In this document: one piece after another, positions 9,854 through 35,808 of the stretch
Layout of the letters: each line of letters begins with the position of its first letter
Numbering within the stretch: position 1 is the first letter of the stretch
Source: a virus
Taxonomy: Duplodnaviria; Heunggongvirae; Uroviricota; Caudoviricetes
Length of the DNA: 53,794 bases
Direction: 5' to 3' (one strand)
IMG/VR virus record: IMGVR_UViG_2740892439_000006
Span: 1-53,794 of that record
Made by a program: the position numbers and the translations under genes
The notes under the pieces: generated by a model
The model's database searches: none
Told to the model about the DNA's origin: nothing
The model's input: only the letters and a program-made list of their open reading frames with translations

Positions 9854-9883
9854 TGTTAGAAAACTAAAATCAATGTTCTAACG
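9854..9883. promoter_or_regulatory. palindromic operator-like site A (TGTTAGA-N16-TCTAACg)
   Basis: Inverted 7-mers with 16-bp spacer in promoter region of the leftward operon starting at 9811. Confidence 0.5.
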
Positions 9884-13563: not shown

Positions 13564-13593
13564 TGTTAGAAAATCAATTTTGAATATCTAACT
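13564..13593. promoter_or_regulatory. palindromic operator-like site B (TGTTAGA-N16-TCTAACt)
   Basis: In the divergent promoter region between the leftward operon and ref. Confidence 0.5.
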
Positions 13594-13641: not shown

Positions 13642-14220
13642 ATGCAGAAACAGAGTTATTGGGAGAAACAGAGACAAAAAGCCATGCAAAAATTGGCTGA
13701 CCCGGCCTGGCGAGAGGAACAAAGGGCAAAGCGCCTTCAACAAGCTCAACGCCAGCAGCAGCGAGCGAGAGAAAAAGCCGCATCGCCTGAATATCGGCAA
13801 AAGAAAATTGAAAAAGCAAAGCAATATGAACAGCGGAGAAAAGATAAAGCTGTATCCGCTCCGCCCAAAAAAACACGCACGTCACGCGGCCTGAAAGGCA
13901 GATCACTCACAGCCGATGAACGCCGGATACAGACCGCTATCGGTACTCTCCCCTGCATTGCCTGCCATATTCACGGGCAACATAGCCCAGTGGTATCCCT
14001 GCACCATATCTTCGGGAGAACGGCAGAGAACGCGCATAAATATGTCCTCCCTTTGTGTAAATGGCACCACCAATACGCAGCGCCAGCCGAGGTCCGAGAA
14101 CAATATCCCTGGCTGGTCCCTGTTCATGCTGACGGAAAAATAGGCGGAAAAGCAGATTTCATGCGGCACAATGCCGATGAAATGACGTTGTATCAGATGG
14201 CGATTGAATTGATAAATTAG
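13642..14220 (+). CDS. ref: Ref-like HNH endonuclease
   Basis: LADPAWRE, SRGLKGR, LPCIACHIHG, SLHHI, LPLCKWHHQ, APAEVREQYPWLVPVHADG match P1 Ref as recalled. Confidence 0.8.
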   Translation: MQKQSYWEKQRQKAMQKLADPAWREEQRAKRLQQAQRQQQRAREKAASPEYRQKKIEKAKQYEQRRKDKAVSAPPKKTRTSRGLKGRSLTADERRIQTAIGTLPCIACHIHGQHSPVVSLHHIFGRTAENAHKYVLPLCKWHHQYAAPAEVREQYPWLVPVHADGKIGGKADFMRHNADEMTLYQMAIELIN

Positions 14221-14233
14221 TTTTCTAACATTT
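14211..14233. promoter_or_regulatory. operator-like half-site C
   Basis: Reverse complement reads aaaaTGTTAGAAAACTAAtt, same core as sites A and E; no matching second half. Confidence 0.3.
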
Positions 14234-17886: not shown

Positions 17887-18175
17887 TTCATTAACTCCAT
17901 ACCTTACCATCTTAGCCGCGAGCGCGGTCCCTAAAACCATTAACTTCACTGCACCGTCCTTCATGCAATCAAAATGACTTTTATGTTATAAAAATAATCA
18001 GCCAAATCAACATGATTTAGGCCAAATTTCTGTCAATAAATAAAATCCACAAAAAGTGGTTGACACTATTTTGGAAATCACAAACTGCACATAATCCATC
18101 GCGCTAACGGCTCCCGTTGAAGGTTCTTTTGACGATTAACTTTCAGCCGAAGCGCGGTAGGGAGTCATAACGCCA

Positions 18176-21770: not shown

Positions 21771-22109
21771 TCAGGCTGCTTTTTTATTCAGGTTCCGCTG
21801 AGAAATAAATTTTTCAGCAGTATTGATACGACTTAACTCTTCCTGAACGCGCATATCATTTTCGACTTCCCACAGGTCTACTGCGGTCTGAAGATTAATC
21901 CAAAAATCTACAGAAGTATCGAATGCTTTTGCCAGGCGATATGCCATATCCATCGTTAGCTTACGATTATTATTAACAAGAGCACTTACGGTGTTACGAT
22001 GAACATGAAGTATTTCTGCTAACTCGTTGATCTTCAGCTCTAACGGCTCCAGGTATTCGTACAGCAGGATATCACCTACGGTCGTCGGTTTTCTGGTTGC
22101 CTGTTTCAT
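21771..22109 (-). CDS. higA: HigA-family antitoxin (XRE HTH)
   Basis: VGDILLYEYLEPLELKINELAEILHVHRNTVSALVNNNRKLTMDMAYRLAKAFDTSVDFWINLQ matches HigA family pattern. Confidence 0.7.
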   Translation of the reverse strand: MKQATRKPTTVGDILLYEYLEPLELKINELAEILHVHRNTVSALVNNNRKLTMDMAYRLAKAFDTSVDFWINLQTAVDLWEVENDMRVQEELSRINTAEKFISQRNLNKKAA

Positions 22110-22179
22110 TTTTTGCCCTTACTAGCGTGCGTATTAAGTGGACTCTGGTCAGAACCCGGTCCGTAACCGGGTATCTGTT

Positions 22180-22482
22180 TTAGTATTTGTGAGGGTCGAG
22201 ATACAAGTCCTCGGCCTTTCCGTTAACCCACTTAAAAATTAACCTATATTGCTTATTCACCCTTACTGATGAATAGCCATTTAGCTTCCCTGACAGTTCC
22301 TCATACCGATTACCTGGTGGTGATCTTAAATCCTTACAGGTAGTTGCGGCATTGATAATGTCCAACTTCCGTGACAATGTCATATGAATATCAGGAGGTA
22401 TCTTTCTATGTGGTGTTGAAAATTCAAAAAAATCATCAAGCCACGCATCCCTGAAATCCTTTATGTTAATTTTTTTGGTCAT
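22180..22482 (-). CDS. higB: HigB-family toxin (RelE/ParE superfamily)
   Basis: LRSPPGNRYEELSG...YSSVRVNKQYRLIFKW matches HigB pattern; upstream of higA. Confidence 0.7.
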   Translation of the reverse strand: MTKKINIKDFRDAWLDDFFEFSTPHRKIPPDIHMTLSRKLDIINAATTCKDLRSPPGNRYEELSGKLNGYSSVRVNKQYRLIFKWVNGKAEDLYLDPHKY

Positions 22483-24203: not shown

Positions 24204-25184
24204 GTGGCCCAGGAGTTACAACAATATTTTCTACAGTCAGTGCTCATTAACGATAACAAAGTGCCACGAGACTGGATTTTTACCGCAGTATATGTAGAAA
24301 AAACCAGCCTCAAAGCCCCTTTGCTAAAACTGGAAATTCATGACGCTACCGGCACCGTAATTGATGACTGGAAAGCCAAATACGGTGCATCGCTGGTGGC
24401 TGAAATGGGCGATCCAAACGGTAATGCAGGCACTTTTAAAACAGATTTCTTTGTTACGTCTGCAATGCTGGCTGGTGATGTTGTTACCGTTATTGCTGTC
24501 AGTGAAGACGTGCGCAGGTTTAAGATCCCCTCCCCGCGCACAAATTTACATACCAACAAAACACCAGACGCTATATTCAAGGCATATTCCGGCAAGCTTA
24601 AAATTACCAGCAGCGTGCTAAAACGCGCAGTTACATATCATCTGAATGCCGGTGACAAACCGTCAAAAATGCTTTCGGAGATAGCGCGAGACAAAGGTGC
24701 ATTATGTTGGGTATGCCGGGGGGAATTTAACTTTTACACCCTGGCTGATCTGATGAAGCAAACGCCATCATTTACCTACGAGGGGAATAACCCTAAAGCA
24801 GAATACACTTTGTCCAAAATGCGCCTACTCCAACAGGAACATGCGACAACAGCAAAGAATCAATATCGTTTTGTTGGGTATTCCATGACCGATGGCTACG
24901 TCGAATATGGCGATAGCTCACTCCCAGTGCGTTATATATCCGACTCTGATATGGAAACTCTTCGCAATATGCAGCTGTCTCTCGTCCCCAAAATGGATAT
25001 AGAAGTCGCAGGCAATCCTGATATAAAACCGGGGATGGTGATAGAGATTATCGTATACCGCTATGACCAGGAAAACCGCATTGATGAATCAATGCCCCGT
25101 AAGCTGATAGTAAAAAATGTTGCGCACTTTGAAGACCGCGTAGGCTACACAACACGAATGATATTGGGAGTGCCGAACAAATGA
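24204..25184 (+). CDS. putative baseplate structural protein
   Basis: 326 aa; GTG start after upstream stop; coupled to next gene. Confidence 0.4.
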   Translation: MAQELQQYFLQSVLINDNKVPRDWIFTAVYVEKTSLKAPLLKLEIHDATGTVIDDWKAKYGASLVAEMGDPNGNAGTFKTDFFVTSAMLAGDVVTVIAVSEDVRRFKIPSPRTNLHTNKTPDAIFKAYSGKLKITSSVLKRAVTYHLNAGDKPSKMLSEIARDKGALCWVCRGEFNFYTLADLMKQTPSFTYEGNNPKAEYTLSKMRLLQQEHATTAKNQYRFVGYSMTDGYVEYGDSSLPVRYISDSDMETLRNMQLSLVPKMDIEVAGNPDIKPGMVIEIIVYRYDQENRIDESMPRKLIVKNVAHFEDRVGYTTRMILGVPNK

Positions 25185-25834
25185 AGCGTAGAGCGCAAAT
25201 TGTTGGAACTGTGCACCCGGCAGGGCTTATGCGTGCTCAAGTCCGTGTTTTACCTGACTGGAATGGCGTTCCTGATGACGATCTACCCTGGGCGGAATAC
25301 CTGTTACCCATCGGAAACGCTTTTGTACCCACAGTCAAAGGTGACCTGGTCTGGGTAGAGTTTCCTTATTTAGATGTTAACGGTCGAATAGACACCAGAC
25401 GCCCAATGATAGTTGGTGCCGCTCAGGATGCACCGGGAGGAATTCCAAACGTTGCACCAGAAGCATCTGGCAAAGGCAACGGCTGGACGCCGCCGGAAGT
25501 AGATGGAGCACCTCCCCGCCCCCAAATCTCAGCAACGAAAGACTTCGTTATTCACCGCAACAATATTCTTGAAGTACGAACTGCTGGTGGCGGCTATGAA
25601 ATTGCCAATACGGCAGCAGGCTCAAGGATTGGCATGAATGAGTCCGGGCAGATATATATCATTGGTCCGGCTGATGTAATCGTGAATGCAGGAGGGAGTG
25701 TTAACGTCAAATCAGCCAACAACATCAATGTTAAAGGGGAAAATATTGCTGTCACCGCTAACGGAGACATAGCTTTCAAGGCAGGAGGAACCTTTCAGGC
25801 CACTGCTAGCAACTTCGATTTCAAGAAAGGATAG
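25181..25834 (+). CDS. baseplate spike / gpV-like protein
   Basis: N-terminal OB-like region (GTVHPAG..AQVRV...GDLVWVEFP) and C-terminal Gly/Asn-rich beta-helix-like repeats. Confidence 0.5.
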   Translation: MKRRAQIVGTVHPAGLMRAQVRVLPDWNGVPDDDLPWAEYLLPIGNAFVPTVKGDLVWVEFPYLDVNGRIDTRRPMIVGAAQDAPGGIPNVAPEASGKGNGWTPPEVDGAPPRPQISATKDFVIHRNNILEVRTAGGGYEIANTAAGSRIGMNESGQIYIIGPADVIVNAGGSVNVKSANNINVKGENIAVTANGDIAFKAGGTFQATASNFDFKKG

Positions 25835-25843
25835 AAAATGCAC

Positions 25844-25887
25844 CCATTTGTGTTAGATAATTAATATGTATTTTCTAACACAAATGG
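25844..25887. promoter_or_regulatory. palindromic operator-like site D (perfect 14-bp arms, TGTTAGA-N16-TCTAACA core)
   Basis: ccatttgtgttaga ... tctaacacaaatgg immediately upstream of rdgC start. Confidence 0.55.
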
Positions 25888-25893
25888 TGAGAC

Positions 25894-26799
25894 ATGAGAT
25901 CAGTCGCTTTCAAAAATATCTTCATCTATCGTCTTTCACGCGAAGTTAGCTGGGATACTGCAGAAGTAAATGCAGCCCTTAGCAAGTTTGTGTTTACCCC
26001 ATGCGGTTCTCAGGATATGGCTAAAGCTGGTTGGACCCCCGTTCTTGGCGACAACCTCACCCATGAATACCAAGGTTTTCTTCTGATACAGCATAAACGA
26101 GAGGAAAAAATCCTACCCTCTCAAGTGCTCAAAGAAGAGTTACAGAAAAAAATCCTGACACTTGAAGAAGAGCAAGACAGAAAGCTGAAGAAGACTGAAA
26201 AAGATTCGCTGAAGGATGAAGTGCTTCACTCTCTGCTTCCTCGTGCTTTCACGAGAAAATCAGTCGCTAAAATCCTGATAGACCGAAGCAATCATCTGGT
26301 TTTTGTCGAGGCCAGCAGTGCTAAAAAAGCAGAGGATCAGCTGGCTTTGTTACGGAAATCGCTTGGCAGCTTGCCCGTTGTCCCCTTCTCTCCGAAAGAC
26401 CCATTAGAACTGACCATCACTGGCTGGATTAAAAATGGCTTCCCGAACGGTTTCCGTGCCGGTGAGGAAGCGACCTTAAAAGCATTGCTTGATGATGGCG
26501 GCGCGGTCCGCTGCAAAAAAGTGGACCTGCTATCCGACGAGATCATGAGTCATATAGAAGCTGGTAAGGTTGCAACCACAGTTGCGGTTAACTGGCAAGA
26601 CCGTGCATTTTTCAGACTGAATGACGATATGAGTATCAAGGCTTTGTCGTTCAGCGACGAATTGTACGACCAGAACGACGATATTGATCGAGAGGATGTT
26701 GCGCAACGATTTGACGCTGACTTTATCCTGTTTACTGCTGAATTATCCGCGATGTTCACTTCGCTGGTGGAGGCCGTTGGTGGTGAAGCAGAACGTTAA
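25894..26799 (+). CDS. rdgC: recombination-associated protein RdgC homolog
   Basis: [76 protein letters not shown] match E. coli RdgC as recalled. Confidence 0.85.
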
Positions 26800-26812
26800 C
26801 AATAGACCTCTG

Positions 26813-27463
26813 ATGGTGAGTCTTTGTGATTTCACGGGGAAAATGGTCGCCCCCTGGCTGGAGCATGGTATAGATGCTGTTATCGTCGATCCACAACACG
26901 CAGAGACCAGAGATGAGCTGATGCAATCAGGCGCAGTTCTGACACGTATCAGTGCGATTATCGATAGTGATGAAGTTTATGCTTTTCTCCGAAATAATTT
27001 ACAACGTATTGTGTTTTTAGCTGGTTTTCCGCCGTGCACGGACCTTGCTGTTTCCGGTGCGCGCTGGTTTGCGCATAAGGCTGACAAAGATCCGTTTTTC
27101 CAGTTCAAAGCGATGCAGGTCGTCTGGCAGTGTTACGATATTGCAAAGATGATTGGTTGCCCGTACATGATTGAAAACCCGGTCAGCCAAATATCGACAT
27201 TCTGGCGTAAACCTGATCACATCTTCCATCCTTACCACTTCACTGCATATTGCAAGGAAGACAATTACACCAAAAAAACATGCCTCTGGAGCGGGCAAGG
27301 CTTTGTCATGCCTGATGCCCTAATGGACGAATCATTAGGCAAGCCAGATAACAGAATCCATACCGCGCCACCTGGACCTGAAAGGGCTAATTTTCGAAGT
27401 GCTACTCCGCATGGATTCGCAAAGGCAGTTTTCGAAGCGAATAAGGGGGTGCTCTATGAGTAA
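26813..27463 (+). CDS. C5-cytosine methyltransferase-like protein (short, no obvious TRD)
   Basis: FLAGFPPCTDLAVSG (PC motif IV-like) and MIENPV (ENV motif VI-like); start at ATG 26813 just after rdgC stop. Confidence 0.4.
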   Translation: MVSLCDFTGKMVAPWLEHGIDAVIVDPQHAETRDELMQSGAVLTRISAIIDSDEVYAFLRNNLQRIVFLAGFPPCTDLAVSGARWFAHKADKDPFFQFKAMQVVWQCYDIAKMIGCPYMIENPVSQISTFWRKPDHIFHPYHFTAYCKEDNYTKKTCLWSGQGFVMPDALMDESLGKPDNRIHTAPPGPERANFRSATPHGFAKAVFEANKGVLYE

Positions 27464-28361
27464 ATCTATAGCAAGCATAGCCATAGAAAAACAGGATACG
27501 ATGGCTGAAATTAGCTATATGCGCACCATTCGGACTCAGGATGAATATGAGCGCCCGATCTTCAAATGGGTAGGCGGTAAATTCTCAGAGTTGCCTACAG
27601 TGCTTGAGCATCTACCACACGGCAAGCGGTTAATAGAACCATTCGTTGGTGGCGGTTCCGTATTTACAAATGCAGGATTTCGCCACAACCTGCTTAATGA
27701 TATTAACGGTGACCTGATTAACTTCTATCAGACATTGCAGCGAGAAGGACATTCGCTCGTCACGCTGTCATATAGTTTTTTCCAAAATTACAACAACGCT
27801 GACGCTTACCTCGAAGTGCGTGAGGCATTTAACAGAGGAAAGTATGACCAGCTACATCATGCTGCCGCCTTTTTGTACCTTAATCGGCACTGTTTTAATG
27901 GCGTAACGCGGTACAACCAAAATGGCGAGTTCAACGTGGGGTATGGCAAATACAAAGCGCCCTACTTCCCACATGCAGAGATGGAGGCATTTTTGGCTGA
28001 TGACGTACTCAAAAACACGTCCTTTGTATCAGGTGACTTTGCTGGCGTCATCGAGGCGGCTGGTGAAGGCGATGTGATTTTTTGCGATCCGCCGTATGAA
28101 CCGCTGCCGGATACAGAAGGGTTTACCAGTTATTCAGGAAATAGCTTCCGTTTCGACGAACAGAAACGGCTGGTATCTCTATTGGTGGAAGCCCACCAGC
28201 GCGGCGCTAAGGTAGTGATAACAAATAGTGGTGCGCCAAACATCCGTGAACTATATGAAGGAAACGGGTTTAAAGTACATCATATGGCAGCCAGACGGTC
28301 GGTGTCCTGCAAGGCGTCAACACGTGTAGTTGCTAACGATATAATTGCAATAATGAAGTAA
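27456..28361 (+). CDS. dam: DNA adenine methyltransferase (Dam family)
   Basis: FKWVGGK, EPFVGGGSV, FLYLNRHCFNGVTRYN, CDPPY motifs; start at MSKSIASIA with RBS aggggg overlapping upstream stop. Confidence 0.8.
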   Translation: MSKSIASIAIEKQDTMAEISYMRTIRTQDEYERPIFKWVGGKFSELPTVLEHLPHGKRLIEPFVGGGSVFTNAGFRHNLLNDINGDLINFYQTLQREGHSLVTLSYSFFQNYNNADAYLEVREAFNRGKYDQLHHAAAFLYLNRHCFNGVTRYNQNGEFNVGYGKYKAPYFPHAEMEAFLADDVLKNTSFVSGDFAGVIEAAGEGDVIFCDPPYEPLPDTEGFTSYSGNSFRFDEQKRLVSLLVEAHQRGAKVVITNSGAPNIRELYEGNGFKVHHMAARRSVSCKASTRVVANDIIAIMK

Positions 28362-28393
28362 AAAACGCCGCAGTAGCGGCGTTTACTTTTTTA
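28362..28393. terminator. bidirectional rho-independent terminator between dam and glnS
   Basis: stem cgccgc/gcggcg, loop agta, A5 upstream and T-run downstream. Confidence 0.7.
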
Positions 28394-28409
28394 TGTGGCG
28401 AAATACCTA

Positions 28410-30071
28410 TTAACCTAACTTCGCCCAGGTATCACGCAGCCCAACGGTGCGGTTAAATACCGGTTTTTCCGCCGTGGAATGGCGGCTGTCGAGGCAGAAA
28501 TAACCTTCACGCTCAAACTGGAATGCTTTACCCGCTACCGCGTCTTTCAGCGACGGTTCAGCAAAACCCTGTTTGATCACCAGCGATTCCGGGTTAATCA
28601 CCGACAGGAAATCATCCGCAGCACCTGGGTTCGGCACGCTGAACAGACGATCGTACAGGCGGATTTCAACCGGCAGCGCATGTGCCGCGCTCACCCAGTG
28701 AATAACGCCTTTCACTTTACGACCATCTGCCGGATCTTTGCTTAAGGTGTCGGCGTCATAAGTACAGAAGATGGTGGTGATATTGCCTTCGGCATCTTTC
28801 TCCACGCGTTCAGCCTTAATGACGTAAGCATTACGCAGACGCACTTCTTTACCCAGCACCAGACGTTTGTACTGCTTGTTAGCTTCTTCGCGGAAATCGG
28901 CGCGGTCGATCCAAATCTCACCGCTAAACGGCACCTGACGGCTACCCATTTCCGGTTTGTTTGGATGGTTCGGCATGGTGACCATTTCGCCTTCGCCCTG
29001 GTAGTTTTCGATAACCAGTTTCACCGGATCGATAACCGCCATTGCGCGCGGGGCATTTTCGTTGAGATCTTCACGGATGCAGGATTCCAGCGACGCCATT
29101 TCAATGGTGTTGTCCTGCTTGGTCACGCCGATGCGTTTGCAGAACTCACGAATAGAAGCCGCAGTGTAACCACGACGACGCAGACCGGAAATGGTCGGCA
29201 TACGCGGGTCATCCCAGCCTTCAACGTGCTTGTCGGTCACCAGCAGGTTCAGCTTACGCTTGGACATCACAGTGTATTCCAGATTCAGGCGCGAGAATTC
29301 GTACTGGCGCGGGTGAACAGGAATGGTGATGTTGTCCAGTACCCAGTCATACAGACGACGGTTGTCCTGGAACTCAAGCGTACACAGAGAGTGCGTAATA
29401 CCTTCCAGCGCATCGCTGATGCAGTGGGTAAAGTCGTACATCGGGTAGATGCACCACTTGTTACCAGTCTGGTGGTGTTCAGCAAATTTAATGCGGTACA
29501 GCACCGGATCGCGCATTACGATAAATGGCGACGCCATGTCGATTTTCGCACGCAGGCAGGCTTTACCTTCTTCAAAACCACCGGCACGCATTTTTTCGAA
29601 CAGCGCCAGGTTCTCTTCAACGCTGCGGTCGCGGTACGGGCTGTTTTTACCCGGCTGCGTCAGGGTGCCACGATATTCGCGGATCTGTTCCGGCGTCAGT
29701 TCATCAACGTACGCCAGGCCTTTATTGATCAGTTCAACAGCATAGGCATGGAGTTTGTCAAAATAATCGGAGGAGTAACGGATGTTGCCAGACCAGTGAA
29801 AACCTAACCATTCAACGTCGTTTTTAATCGACTCGACGTACTCGATATCTTCTTTTACCGGGTTAGTGTCGTCGAAACGCAGGTTGCACTGGCCTTTATA
29901 GTCCTGGGCGATCCCGAAGTTCAGGCAGATAGATTTCGCATGACCAATATGCAGATAGCCATTCGGTTCCGGCGGGAAACGGGTATGTACTGTGGTGTGC
30001 TTACCACTGGCCAGATCTTCATCGATGATCTGACGAATAAAGTTAGTCGGGCGGGCTTCTGCCTCACTCAT
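28410..30071 (-). CDS. glnS: glutaminyl-tRNA synthetase
   Basis: 553 aa; N-terminus [24 protein letters not shown] and HIGH-type motif region match E. coli GlnS as recalled; extreme C-terminus reads ...DTWAKLG. Confidence 0.95.
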
Positions 30072-35777: not shown

Positions 35778-35808
35778 TGTTAGAAAACTAAAATTAAATC
35801 ACATAACA
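35778..35808. promoter_or_regulatory. operator-like site E (good left half, degenerate right half)
   Basis: gTGTTAGAAAACTAAAAT shares 17-bp core with site A; sits between divergent genes upstream of structural operon. Confidence 0.35.

Follow-up and report, generated by a model that had tools for sequence, protein, structure and literature searches.

An operon that couples an RdgC homologue to DNA methylation, uhr-hrdC-dmt, has been known from phage P1 since 1989–2004. In this operon hrdC ("homologue of rdgC") lies immediately upstream of dmt and overlaps it, and Dmt is one fused polypeptide that combines a C5-methyltransferase (C5-MTase, PF00145) with a Dam domain (PF02086). The operon is repressed by C1 at Op68, where the upstream C1 operator deviates from the consensus by one mismatch, and dmt is listed with the C1-controlled P1 genes that are induced in the lytic cycle (PMC4713147). 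In a CRISPRi screen P1 hrdC and dmt were both non-essential, hence phenotypes of this operon may be conditional. A second described system is that of phage D6, which reportedly goes back to a study by Gilcrease and Casjens from 2018. In the D6 record (GenBank MF356679), orf65 is entered as an RdgC-family protein that is "similar to P1 hrdC", orf64 as a putative cytosine methylase and orf63 as Dam. In D6-like plasmid prophages the operon has been described as a "DNA methylation module" (PMC6799933).

We examined the version of this operon in a stretch of viral DNA of 53,794 nucleotides (the window). This window represents a D6-like (P1-related) phage-plasmid with 99.8% identity to deposited plasmids and 91% nucleotide identity to phage D6. 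Its matches in E. coli are exclusively plasmid-borne (101 of 101, none chromosomal). Between positions 25844 and 28393 three overlapping genes on the + strand code for an RdgC homologue, a C5-MTase-like protein and Dam (Table 1). The junctions had initially been described as overlapping or near-overlapping, and we found that rdgC and the MTase gene share 17 nt (with ATG 26813 as the start, a gap of 13 nt would separate them); the MTase gene and dam share 8 nt in every relative examined. The operon is flanked by baseplate gene 5 upstream and glnS downstream. Since no terminator separates the operon from the late tail genes 7-24-6-5, which directly precede it on its own strand, late read-through transcription into the operon is possible. 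At the other end, a terminator between the stop codons of dam (28361) and glnS (28410) is common to the operon and the convergent glnS. An Rfam search (E ≤ 1) over positions 25000–28600 returned nothing exceeding the gathering score. None of these features (genes, overlaps, palindrome, terminator) is due to chance.

Table 1. Features of the hrdC-methylase operon (positions in the window)
Feature	Positions	Strand	Details
sigma-70-like promoter candidate	25832–25861	+	-35 TAGAAA at 25832–25837, 18-nt spacer, -10 GATAAT at 25856–25861
palindrome, probable repressor operator	25844–25887		core TGTTAGA-N16-TCTAACA at 25851–25880
hrdC, RdgC family	25894–26799	+	301 aa; PF04381, NF001462, 2OWL
short "Dcm-like" C5-MTase-like gene	26783–27463	+	226 aa (GTG 26783); 216 aa (ATG 26813)
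Dam-family N6-adenine methyltransferase	27456–28361	+	301 aa including a 30-aa N-terminal Dmt linker remnant
bidirectional intrinsic terminator	28363–28384		9-bp stem, 6 GC pairs, T-runs on both strands

In phage D6 these three genes recur, with neither their order nor their overlaps changed. D6 also shares the palindrome ahead of the operon and the terminator behind it, and its operon has the same neighbours, a homologue of P1 gene 5 on the upstream side and glnS on the downstream side. The two operons are separated by point differences only, for example at ATG 26813, which reads GTT in D6, and nothing in the window is functionally distinct. Because the operon is already annotated in D6, and its P1 counterpart is long known, it is ordinary as a discovery; it matters little in this respect and is useful as a correction and as a tidy example. 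The comparison with P1 reveals the same rdgC-first coupling: hrdC is immediately upstream of, and coupled to, the coding capacity for C5 and Dam methylation, and both operons encode C5 and N6-adenine methylation capacity together. The two systems differ in that the window operon has no uhr gene, follows tail gene 5 instead of upfB/upfC, and distributes over two separate genes what P1 encodes in one. On balance, we consider it likely that this operon is the D6-lineage version of the C1-controlled uhr-hrdC-dmt operon. In placing RdgC outside the standard P1 genes, the initial annotation was wrong. With hrdC directly upstream of dmt in P1, and D6 orf65 recorded as "similar to P1 gene hrdC", the pairing of rdgC with methylases is an ancestral P1-group arrangement rather than an unusual addition, and one that the P1/D6 group has conserved.

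Homology to family models and to a solved structure places the product of the first gene in the RdgC family. This protein matches the Pfam RdgC model PF04381 over profile positions 3–298 of 298 (E = 4.8e-102, 341.7 bits, cut-off 25) and scores 387 bits against the NCBIfam RdgC equivalog NF001462 (cut-off 330). The similarity to RdgC proposed at the start of the operon was also borne out by a full-length alignment with the sequence of the E. coli RdgC crystal structure 2OWL (61% identity over 297 aa, E = 1.8e-110). Identity amounts to 54% with P1 HrdC and 90% with D6 orf65.

The third gene was correctly recognized as coding for a Dam-family adenine methyltransferase. Its product matches the Pfam D12 MTase family PF02086 (1.9e-56, 192 bits) and TIGR00571 (249 bits, cut-off 114.85), aligns with E. 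coli Dam structures at 1.7e-58, and contains the motifs CDPPYEP (DPPY) and PFVGGGS (FVGGG). With 240 bits it remains below the cut-off of the E. coli Dam equivalog NF008152 (441 bits). It differs from E. coli Dam at L122 (Val instead) and P134 (Gly instead), which we take to be DNA-contact positions in the E. coli Dam structure; P1 Dmt differs in the same way. The hrdC and dam products are phage-borne paralogues of E. coli RdgC and Dam with full-length homology. The window Dam shares 69% identity with the C-terminal half of P1 Dmt and, unlike P1 Dmt, stands alone but retains a remnant of the linker. From this identity to the GATC-methylating Dam half of P1 Dmt we infer that the enzyme is specific for GATC. 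A D6-like plasmid from E. marmotae carries a fused canonical P1-type C5+Dam Dmt at the MTase position of the operon, and the Dam half of this protein, linker included, is 80% identical to the window Dam. This observation shows that the MTase position is functionally a "C5 MTase + Dam" slot.

The operon could also serve chiefly in counter-defence and RecA control, with the methylases acting against restriction and RdgC damping RecA, thereby blunting RecA-triggered defences or restraining Ref. Several observations are consistent with this idea. The methylases are indeed orphans as first assumed, with no nuclease nearby, and PADLOC returns "orphan methyltransferase" as the best match for Dam. E. 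coli RdgC, to which the hrdC product is 61% identical, is a RecA antagonist, as reportedly established in the biochemical work of Drees et al. in 2006. Furthermore, ref (13642–14220) lies behind the same operator motif as the hrdC operon, which makes co-expression of hrdC and ref plausible, even if control of RecA or Ref by the RdgC homologue is speculation. On the other hand, the documented role of P1 Dam is to methylate pac sites for packaging, and because packaging needs this methylation, dmt is essential in dam- hosts (review PMC12707154). An anti-restriction role of the methylases, as initially proposed, is therefore incomplete as an explanation. D6-like elements already contain the anti-restriction genes darA, darB, ddrA, ddrB and ulx. 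The frequencies of GATC (0.72 of expectation) and CCWGG (0.83) in the window are mildly low and do not indicate strong avoidance. Our literature search found no paper that ties an RdgC from a phage either to defences depending on RecA or to Ref. In other phages rdgC is found with SSB, annealing-protein, exonuclease and integrase genes rather than with methylases, and linkage of rdgC to methylases was not found in Klebsiella BU9, Vibrio R20L, Vibrio 51E28.4, Pasteurella Pmp11 or Pseudomonas BR228a. Given this evidence, counter-defence as the chief function of the operon appears doubtful. A search across the window for a pac-like cluster of GATC sites found none.

The palindrome upstream of hrdC measures 44 bp, with 18-nt arms that are 94% complementary and separated by 8 nt. 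A scan for promoters produced a candidate with 9 of 12 consensus matches, the -10 hexamer of which falls within the left palindrome arm; this candidate may be the operon promoter. Among D6-like elements we distinguished 12 variants, each of which has the sequence TAGATAATT unchanged, and the core of the palindrome is invariant in D6-like lineages with coding flanks that are only ~69% identical. The outer arms differ among lineages with their complementarity retained. Such covarying arms are not required of a plain protein-binding site. The geometry of the core (half-sites with 16-nt spacing) is also found at 9854–9883 and at 13564–13593, upstream of ref, in both cases without extended stems. 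The half-site TGTTAGAAAA occurs in five exact copies in the window and in ten in D6, one of them 28 nt upstream of D6 c1. The 14-nt palindrome arm in full has no second copy elsewhere, and only the shorter core recurs. Scanning with the core produced 20 matches in viral contigs and none in genome contigs, and a search of the window for the P1 C1 operator consensus came back empty. The recurrence of the core upstream of ref and of the half-site in front of D6 c1 support the prediction, made already in the initial annotation, that the palindrome is a repressor operator, which a C1-type repressor is predicted to bind. If so, D6-like elements use a dyad-symmetric operator of other sequence (TGTTAGA-N16-TCTAACA) in place of the asymmetric one in P1.

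Alternatively, the palindrome could be an RNA or DNA hairpin instead of an operator, acting as a stabiliser, an RNase III site or an insulator at the end of the late tail transcript. The ribosome-binding site of rdgC would then be occluded, and the operon would be expressed late by read-through. The palindrome does fold strongly as RNA (-23 kcal/mol, z -5.2), and its right arm extends into the Shine-Dalgarno sequence (GGTGAG). The genes ahead of it are co-oriented, and the stop codon of gene 5 is just 10 nt away from the stem. In addition, five outer pairs of the stem covary across four lineage types, G-U cases included, with a score that is reached by none of 500 shuffles. However, such covariation can also come from palindrome-templated mutation, and in this case it rests on about four lineages. 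Between the arms, the invariant core preserves a mismatch (GATAAT versus GAAAAT), which would be lost from a pure hairpin. The stemless copies of the half-sites with 16-nt spacing before ref and at 9854–9883, and the half-site before D6 c1, also argue against a hairpin. For these reasons we regard a hairpin in place of an operator as unlikely, although the two roles are compatible with each other. Since the palindrome is not followed by a U-tract, it is not an intrinsic terminator.

The middle ORF was resolved only by PHROGs, homologue searches and a fold search. It has no Pfam or NCBIfam match (E ≤ 1), no PADLOC match, and no PDB sequence match either as a single sequence or as a 70-sequence profile. 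In contrast, the protein matches PHROG 757 "DNA methyltransferase" at 9e-78, a type of short C5 protein with homologues in 1589 phage records. The likely start of the gene is GTG 26783, which is preceded by GGAGG at 26769–26773 and is shared by D6 and two lineages of ~69% identity, whereas ATG 26813 is replaced by ATA in E. fergusonii. The C5-MTase motifs proposed for this protein are real, with ENP in place of the suggested ENV: the catalytic Pro-Cys of motif IV is found in PPC at C75 and the motif VI glutamate at E121. Both motifs are invariant in 68–70 homologues with 34–52% identity, and the lysine pair K154/K155 is invariant or nearly so in the same set. The modeled structure corresponds to a DNMT3-like C5-MTase catalytic domain. 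Among solved structures it matches DNMT3B best, an enzyme whose target-recognition domain is minimal. The short C5 protein (only 216–226 aa) lacks a separate domain of this kind between motifs VIII and IX. It resembles other PHROG 757 members in length (~215–235 aa), in its DNMT3-like fold and in having no Pfam model. Because PF00145, NCBIfam and PDB sequences do not match, we assign this protein to a sequence family of its own that shares the fold. The protein also has no sequence similarity to the C5 half of P1 Dmt (residues 1–390) or to JK004 gene 30. In the D6 lineage, the C5-methylase slot has thus been refilled by a short enzyme that is not homologous to the canonical C5 domain, next to a Dam that still holds the stub of the linker.

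A Dcm-like protein from Drexlerviridae (FritzSarasin orthologue) is 37% identical to the short C5 protein over 97% of its length (BLASTP E 3e-43). Residues C82, E128, K175 and K176 of the experimentally active Drexlerviridae homologue correspond to C75, E121, K154 and K155. The Dcm of KarlJaspers/K42 (Drexlerviridae) is the trigger of retron Ec86; the 37%-identical family member gave rise to 5-methylcytosine (5mC) in msDNA as detected by LC-MS, mutation of its catalytic Cys, Glu and Lys-Lys abolished the effect, and the target of the characterised relative is CCWGG (bioRxiv 10.1101/2023.08.16.553469). The Drexlerviridae dcm genes reside in virulent siphoviruses, whereas the short C5 gene belongs to a temperate phage-plasmid, where it is coupled to rdgC and dam in a putatively repressor-controlled operon. 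That the short C5 protein is a pseudo-enzyme, performs other C5 chemistry or acts on RNA or ssDNA is very improbable, given the near-complete conservation of the catalytic Cys, ENP Glu and lysine pair, the 5mC activity of a relative that depends on these same residues, and the presence of a canonical C5-MTase in the same slot of P1 and the E. marmotae plasmid. Since one member triggers a retron, the family deserves a curated model.

Taken as the D6-lineage version of the P1 operon, the locus may work as follows. In the plasmid prophage a C1-type repressor would bind the dyad, which overlaps with both the -10 hexamer and the predicted start of transcription, and so keep the operon off. Expression of the three genes, which are translationally coupled, would come early after induction or infection. 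Dam would methylate GATC on replicating phage DNA, which by analogy with P1 would enable pac cleavage and packaging and free the phage from any dependence on the Dam of its host. The short C5 enzyme would add 5mC and protect against cytosine-sensitive restriction. The RdgC homologue, in E. coli a dsDNA-binding ring that antagonises RecA, would be co-expressed with the methylases.

The coupling between the RdgC ring and the methylases has been kept despite the swap of the C5 module and could reflect a functional partnership rather than a historical accident. RdgC might, for instance, shield newly replicated phage DNA from RecA to allow its methylation, or might tether the methylases. A dual role of the palindrome is also conceivable, as an operator in DNA and as an RNA hairpin that silences rdgC translation on late read-through transcripts. 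If the short C5 enzyme is visible to retron Ec86-type sensors, it would expose D6-like phage-plasmids to them, and this exposure would explain why the C5 gene is kept repressed in lysogens. We regard these readings (the partnership, the dual role and the visibility to retrons) as a long shot. The short C5 family, for which Pfam has no model, comprises thousands of phage and prophage members.

The 2.55-kb region that holds rdgC, a short C5-methyltransferase-like gene (the middle gene) and dam aligned over its full length with Escherichia phage D6 (91% identity), and about 120 non-mobilizable plasmids of ~90 kb from E. coli, Salmonella and Shigella matched it at up to 99.8% identity. In 5,426 complete E. 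coli genomes, 101 of 101 matches were plasmid-borne and none was chromosomal. From the plasmid-only matches and the identity with D6 we conclude that the window belongs to a P1-related, D6-like plasmid prophage. The initial annotation of an rdgC/C5-methyltransferase-like/dam operon was confirmed as an observation. This operon is already annotated in D6, where the GenBank record names orf65 an RdgC-family protein similar to P1 hrdC, orf64 "putative DNA-cytosine methylase" and orf63 [quoted passage not shown], and it corresponds to the classical P1 operon. Our analysis adds a start codon for the middle gene, a D6-type dyad operator motif, a model-based, fold-level confirmation of the short C5 enzyme with its link to the retron-trigger Dcm family, and the exchange of a C5 module within the D6 clade.

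Features of the operon, its surroundings and the operator-like motif (window coordinates)
Feature	Position	Strand	Remarks
Dyad TGTTAGA-N16-TCTAAC(A)	9854-9883		operator-like motif
Dyad TGTTAGA-N16-TCTAAC(A)	13564-13593		operator-like motif; 50 nt upstream of ref
Operator-like motif	14221-14230	-	just 3' of the ref stop
Operator-like motif	17984-17993		
Operator-like motif	35778-35787		
Homologues of P1 tail/baseplate genes 7, 24, 6, 5			upstream of the operon
Palindrome	25844-25887		18-nt arms, 8-nt gap; between gene 5 stop and rdgC start
rdgC/hrdC (RdgC homologue)	25894-26799	+	Pfam 4.8e-102; NCBIfam equivalog above cut-off
Middle gene, GTG start	26783	+	nine bases 3' of GGAGG; 17-nt overlap with rdgC
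dam (Dam-family enzyme), ATG start at 27456	27456-28361	+	seven bases 3' of AAGGGGG; 8-nt overlap with preceding stop; DPPY and FVGGG motifs
Terminator	28363-28384		9-bp GC-rich stem, T-runs on both sides; ends operon and convergent glnS
glnS (glutaminyl-tRNA synthetase), full length	28410-30071	-	convergent with dam

The sequence identifies the first and third genes unambiguously. Similarity of the first product to RdgC is borne out by its family matches and by 61% identity to E. coli RdgC of structure 2OWL, and the assignment of the third to the Dam family by its motifs. The proposed overlapping junctions are present on both sides of the middle gene, for which GTG 26783 is most likely the start: this codon and the encoded VKQ..NNRPL peptide are kept in D6 and in S. 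dysenteriae and E. fergusonii plasmids, and the alternative ATG at 26813 reads GTT in D6 and ATA in E. fergusonii. The junction between the middle gene and dam is kept in every relative examined. Since no nuclease gene adjoins the methylases, they are orphans, as had been proposed.

The middle protein had no match in Pfam, NCBIfam or PADLOC, nor among PDB sequences even with a profile. Its family is nevertheless very large, with 6,933 proteins in a word-indexed search, 1,555 clusters at 50% identity in an exhaustive search, and homologues in 1,589 phage records, often labelled "Dcm-like"; PHROG 757 matches at 9e-78. The bacterial-chromosome homologues examined map to early or nin regions of prophages. 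A relative has been studied experimentally: retron Ec86 is triggered by the 711-bp dcm of a KarlJaspers-like Drexlerviridae phage, whose product methylates the retron's msDNA to give 5mC, and the C82A/E128A/K175A/K176A mutant is inactive (bioRxiv 10.1101/2023.08.16.553469). By way of its orthologue in phage FritzSarasin (37% identity to the middle protein, E 3e-43), these four residues align onto C75, E121, K154 and K155. Among 68-70 homologues of 34-52% identity, C75 (PPC motif), E121 (ENP) and K154 are invariant. Given these conserved residues and the active relative, the PC- and ENV-like motifs had been called correctly, and the middle protein is a real, full-length member of a short C5-methyltransferase-fold family rather than a fragment.

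The interpretation first attached to these genes holds in part. Its C5 motifs, orphan methylases and operator idea stand, whereas it was mistaken in taking RdgC to be foreign to P1: P1 hrdC lies immediately upstream of dmt, just as rdgC precedes the methylases here. P1 Dmt fuses a canonical PF00145 C5 domain to a Dam domain, whereas the window has separate genes; the Dam half of P1 Dmt shares 69% identity with the window's Dam, and the C5 half shows no similarity to the middle protein. The E. marmotae D6-like plasmid NZ_CP099353 (L005 4931-7344) carries a P1-type C5(PF00145)+Dam Dmt in the same slot after rdgC; the D6 clade has thus seen an exchange of the C5 module. That Dmt is split into two overlapping ORFs in its record, probably by a frameshift or else by sequencing error. 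The window Dam is 80% identical to it, including a 30-residue N-terminal extension that corresponds to the Dmt inter-domain linker. The simplest history is that the canonical C5 domain of a fused Dmt was replaced by the stand-alone short enzyme, or the reverse; in either direction the order hrdC, C5 methylase, Dam is preserved. In a Cronobacter P1-like phage the order is uhr-hrdC-(unknown 191 aa)-Dmt. In unrelated phages rdgC adjoins SSB, annealing-protein, exonuclease or integrase genes instead of methylases, so that the linkage is a feature of the P1/D6 group.

The prediction that the operon lies under a palindromic operator is well supported by motif recurrence and by analogy with P1, where a C1 operator stands 5' of uhr-hrdC-dmt as the palindrome stands 5' of rdgC. 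The half-site TGTTAGAAAA occurs in five exact copies in the window against an estimated ~0.2 expected from base composition, and extends to TTT(G/A)TGTTAGAAAA(C/T)TAA. The D6 genome has 10 exact half-sites with shared flanks, including one 28 nt 5' of the repressor gene c1. A promoter-like pair, TAGAAA-18-GATAAT, places its -10 within the left half-site of the predicted operator. The recurrent motif is probably a D6-type C1 operator set, distinct from the asymmetric ATTGCTCTAATAAATTT of P1; the P1 consensus is absent from the window, consistent with a different immunity specificity. In P1 itself (MH422554, 7900-7927), the 3' end of the dmt coding sequence holds two overlapping inverted copies of that consensus with 0 and 2 mismatches, a bivalent operator that presumably controls whatever lies downstream.

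Lineages with only ~69% identity in the flanking coding sequence keep the palindrome core TGTGTTAGATAATT...ATTTTCTAACACA unchanged. We gathered 12 distinct variants with a pattern that required this core, so they inform on the outer arms only. In the alignment of 25839-25892 with these variants, the outermost five stem pairs differ among four lineage types (CCATT/AATGG, CCAAT/ATTGG, AAAAC/GTTTT, TTCAA/TTGGA) with complementarity kept; 0 of 500 shuffles reached the observed covariation score, which reflects few independent events. One arm mismatch, GATAAT vs GAAAAT, is invariant. The RNA hairpin folds strongly (-23 kcal/mol, z -5.2), and it extends to the rdgC Shine-Dalgarno sequence. Covariation and hairpin could point to a further function at the RNA level, in late read-through transcripts, or to nothing more than palindrome-templated mutation.

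The evidence best supports an early DNA-modification operon under repressor control. The RdgC homologue is its least understood part. E. coli RdgC is a dsDNA-binding ring that antagonises RecA, and by homology the phage protein would do likewise; our literature search turned up no experiments on a phage-encoded RdgC. The speculative proposal that it tunes RecA-dependent processes or the Ref nuclease is compatible with its likely co-regulation with ref. P1 Dam has a documented role: packaging needs pac to be methylated, so dmt is essential in dam- hosts (PMC12707154); P1 hrdC and dmt were scored non-essential under laboratory conditions. Shielding from GATC-sensitive restriction is a plausible extra role of Dam, and for the C5 enzyme the probable benefit is protection from cytosine-sensitive restriction; it also comes at a cost, since a relative is what retron Ec86 senses. 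D6-like elements also carry Dar anti-restriction genes.

The glnS product is nearly identical to E. coli GlnS. D6-like elements are known to carry this gene as cargo (PMC6799933); the S. dysenteriae and E. marmotae relatives examined lack it. Genes for a RelE/HigB-type toxin and HigA-type antitoxin (21771-22482, minus strand, and the equivalents of D6 orf70-72) sit between two tail-gene blocks, just 5' of the gene 7-24-6-5-hrdC string. The closest E. coli RefSeq match, NZ_CP031917, has pseudogene flags (frameshifted or partial) on rdgC, the middle gene, dam, glnS and several neighbours; all are intact in the window, and the flags probably reflect assembly error rather than decay. Over the whole window, GATC (0.72) and CCWGG (0.83) are only mildly low, and GGCC is markedly rarer than expected under a maximal-order Markov model (98 observed vs 187, ratio 0.53).
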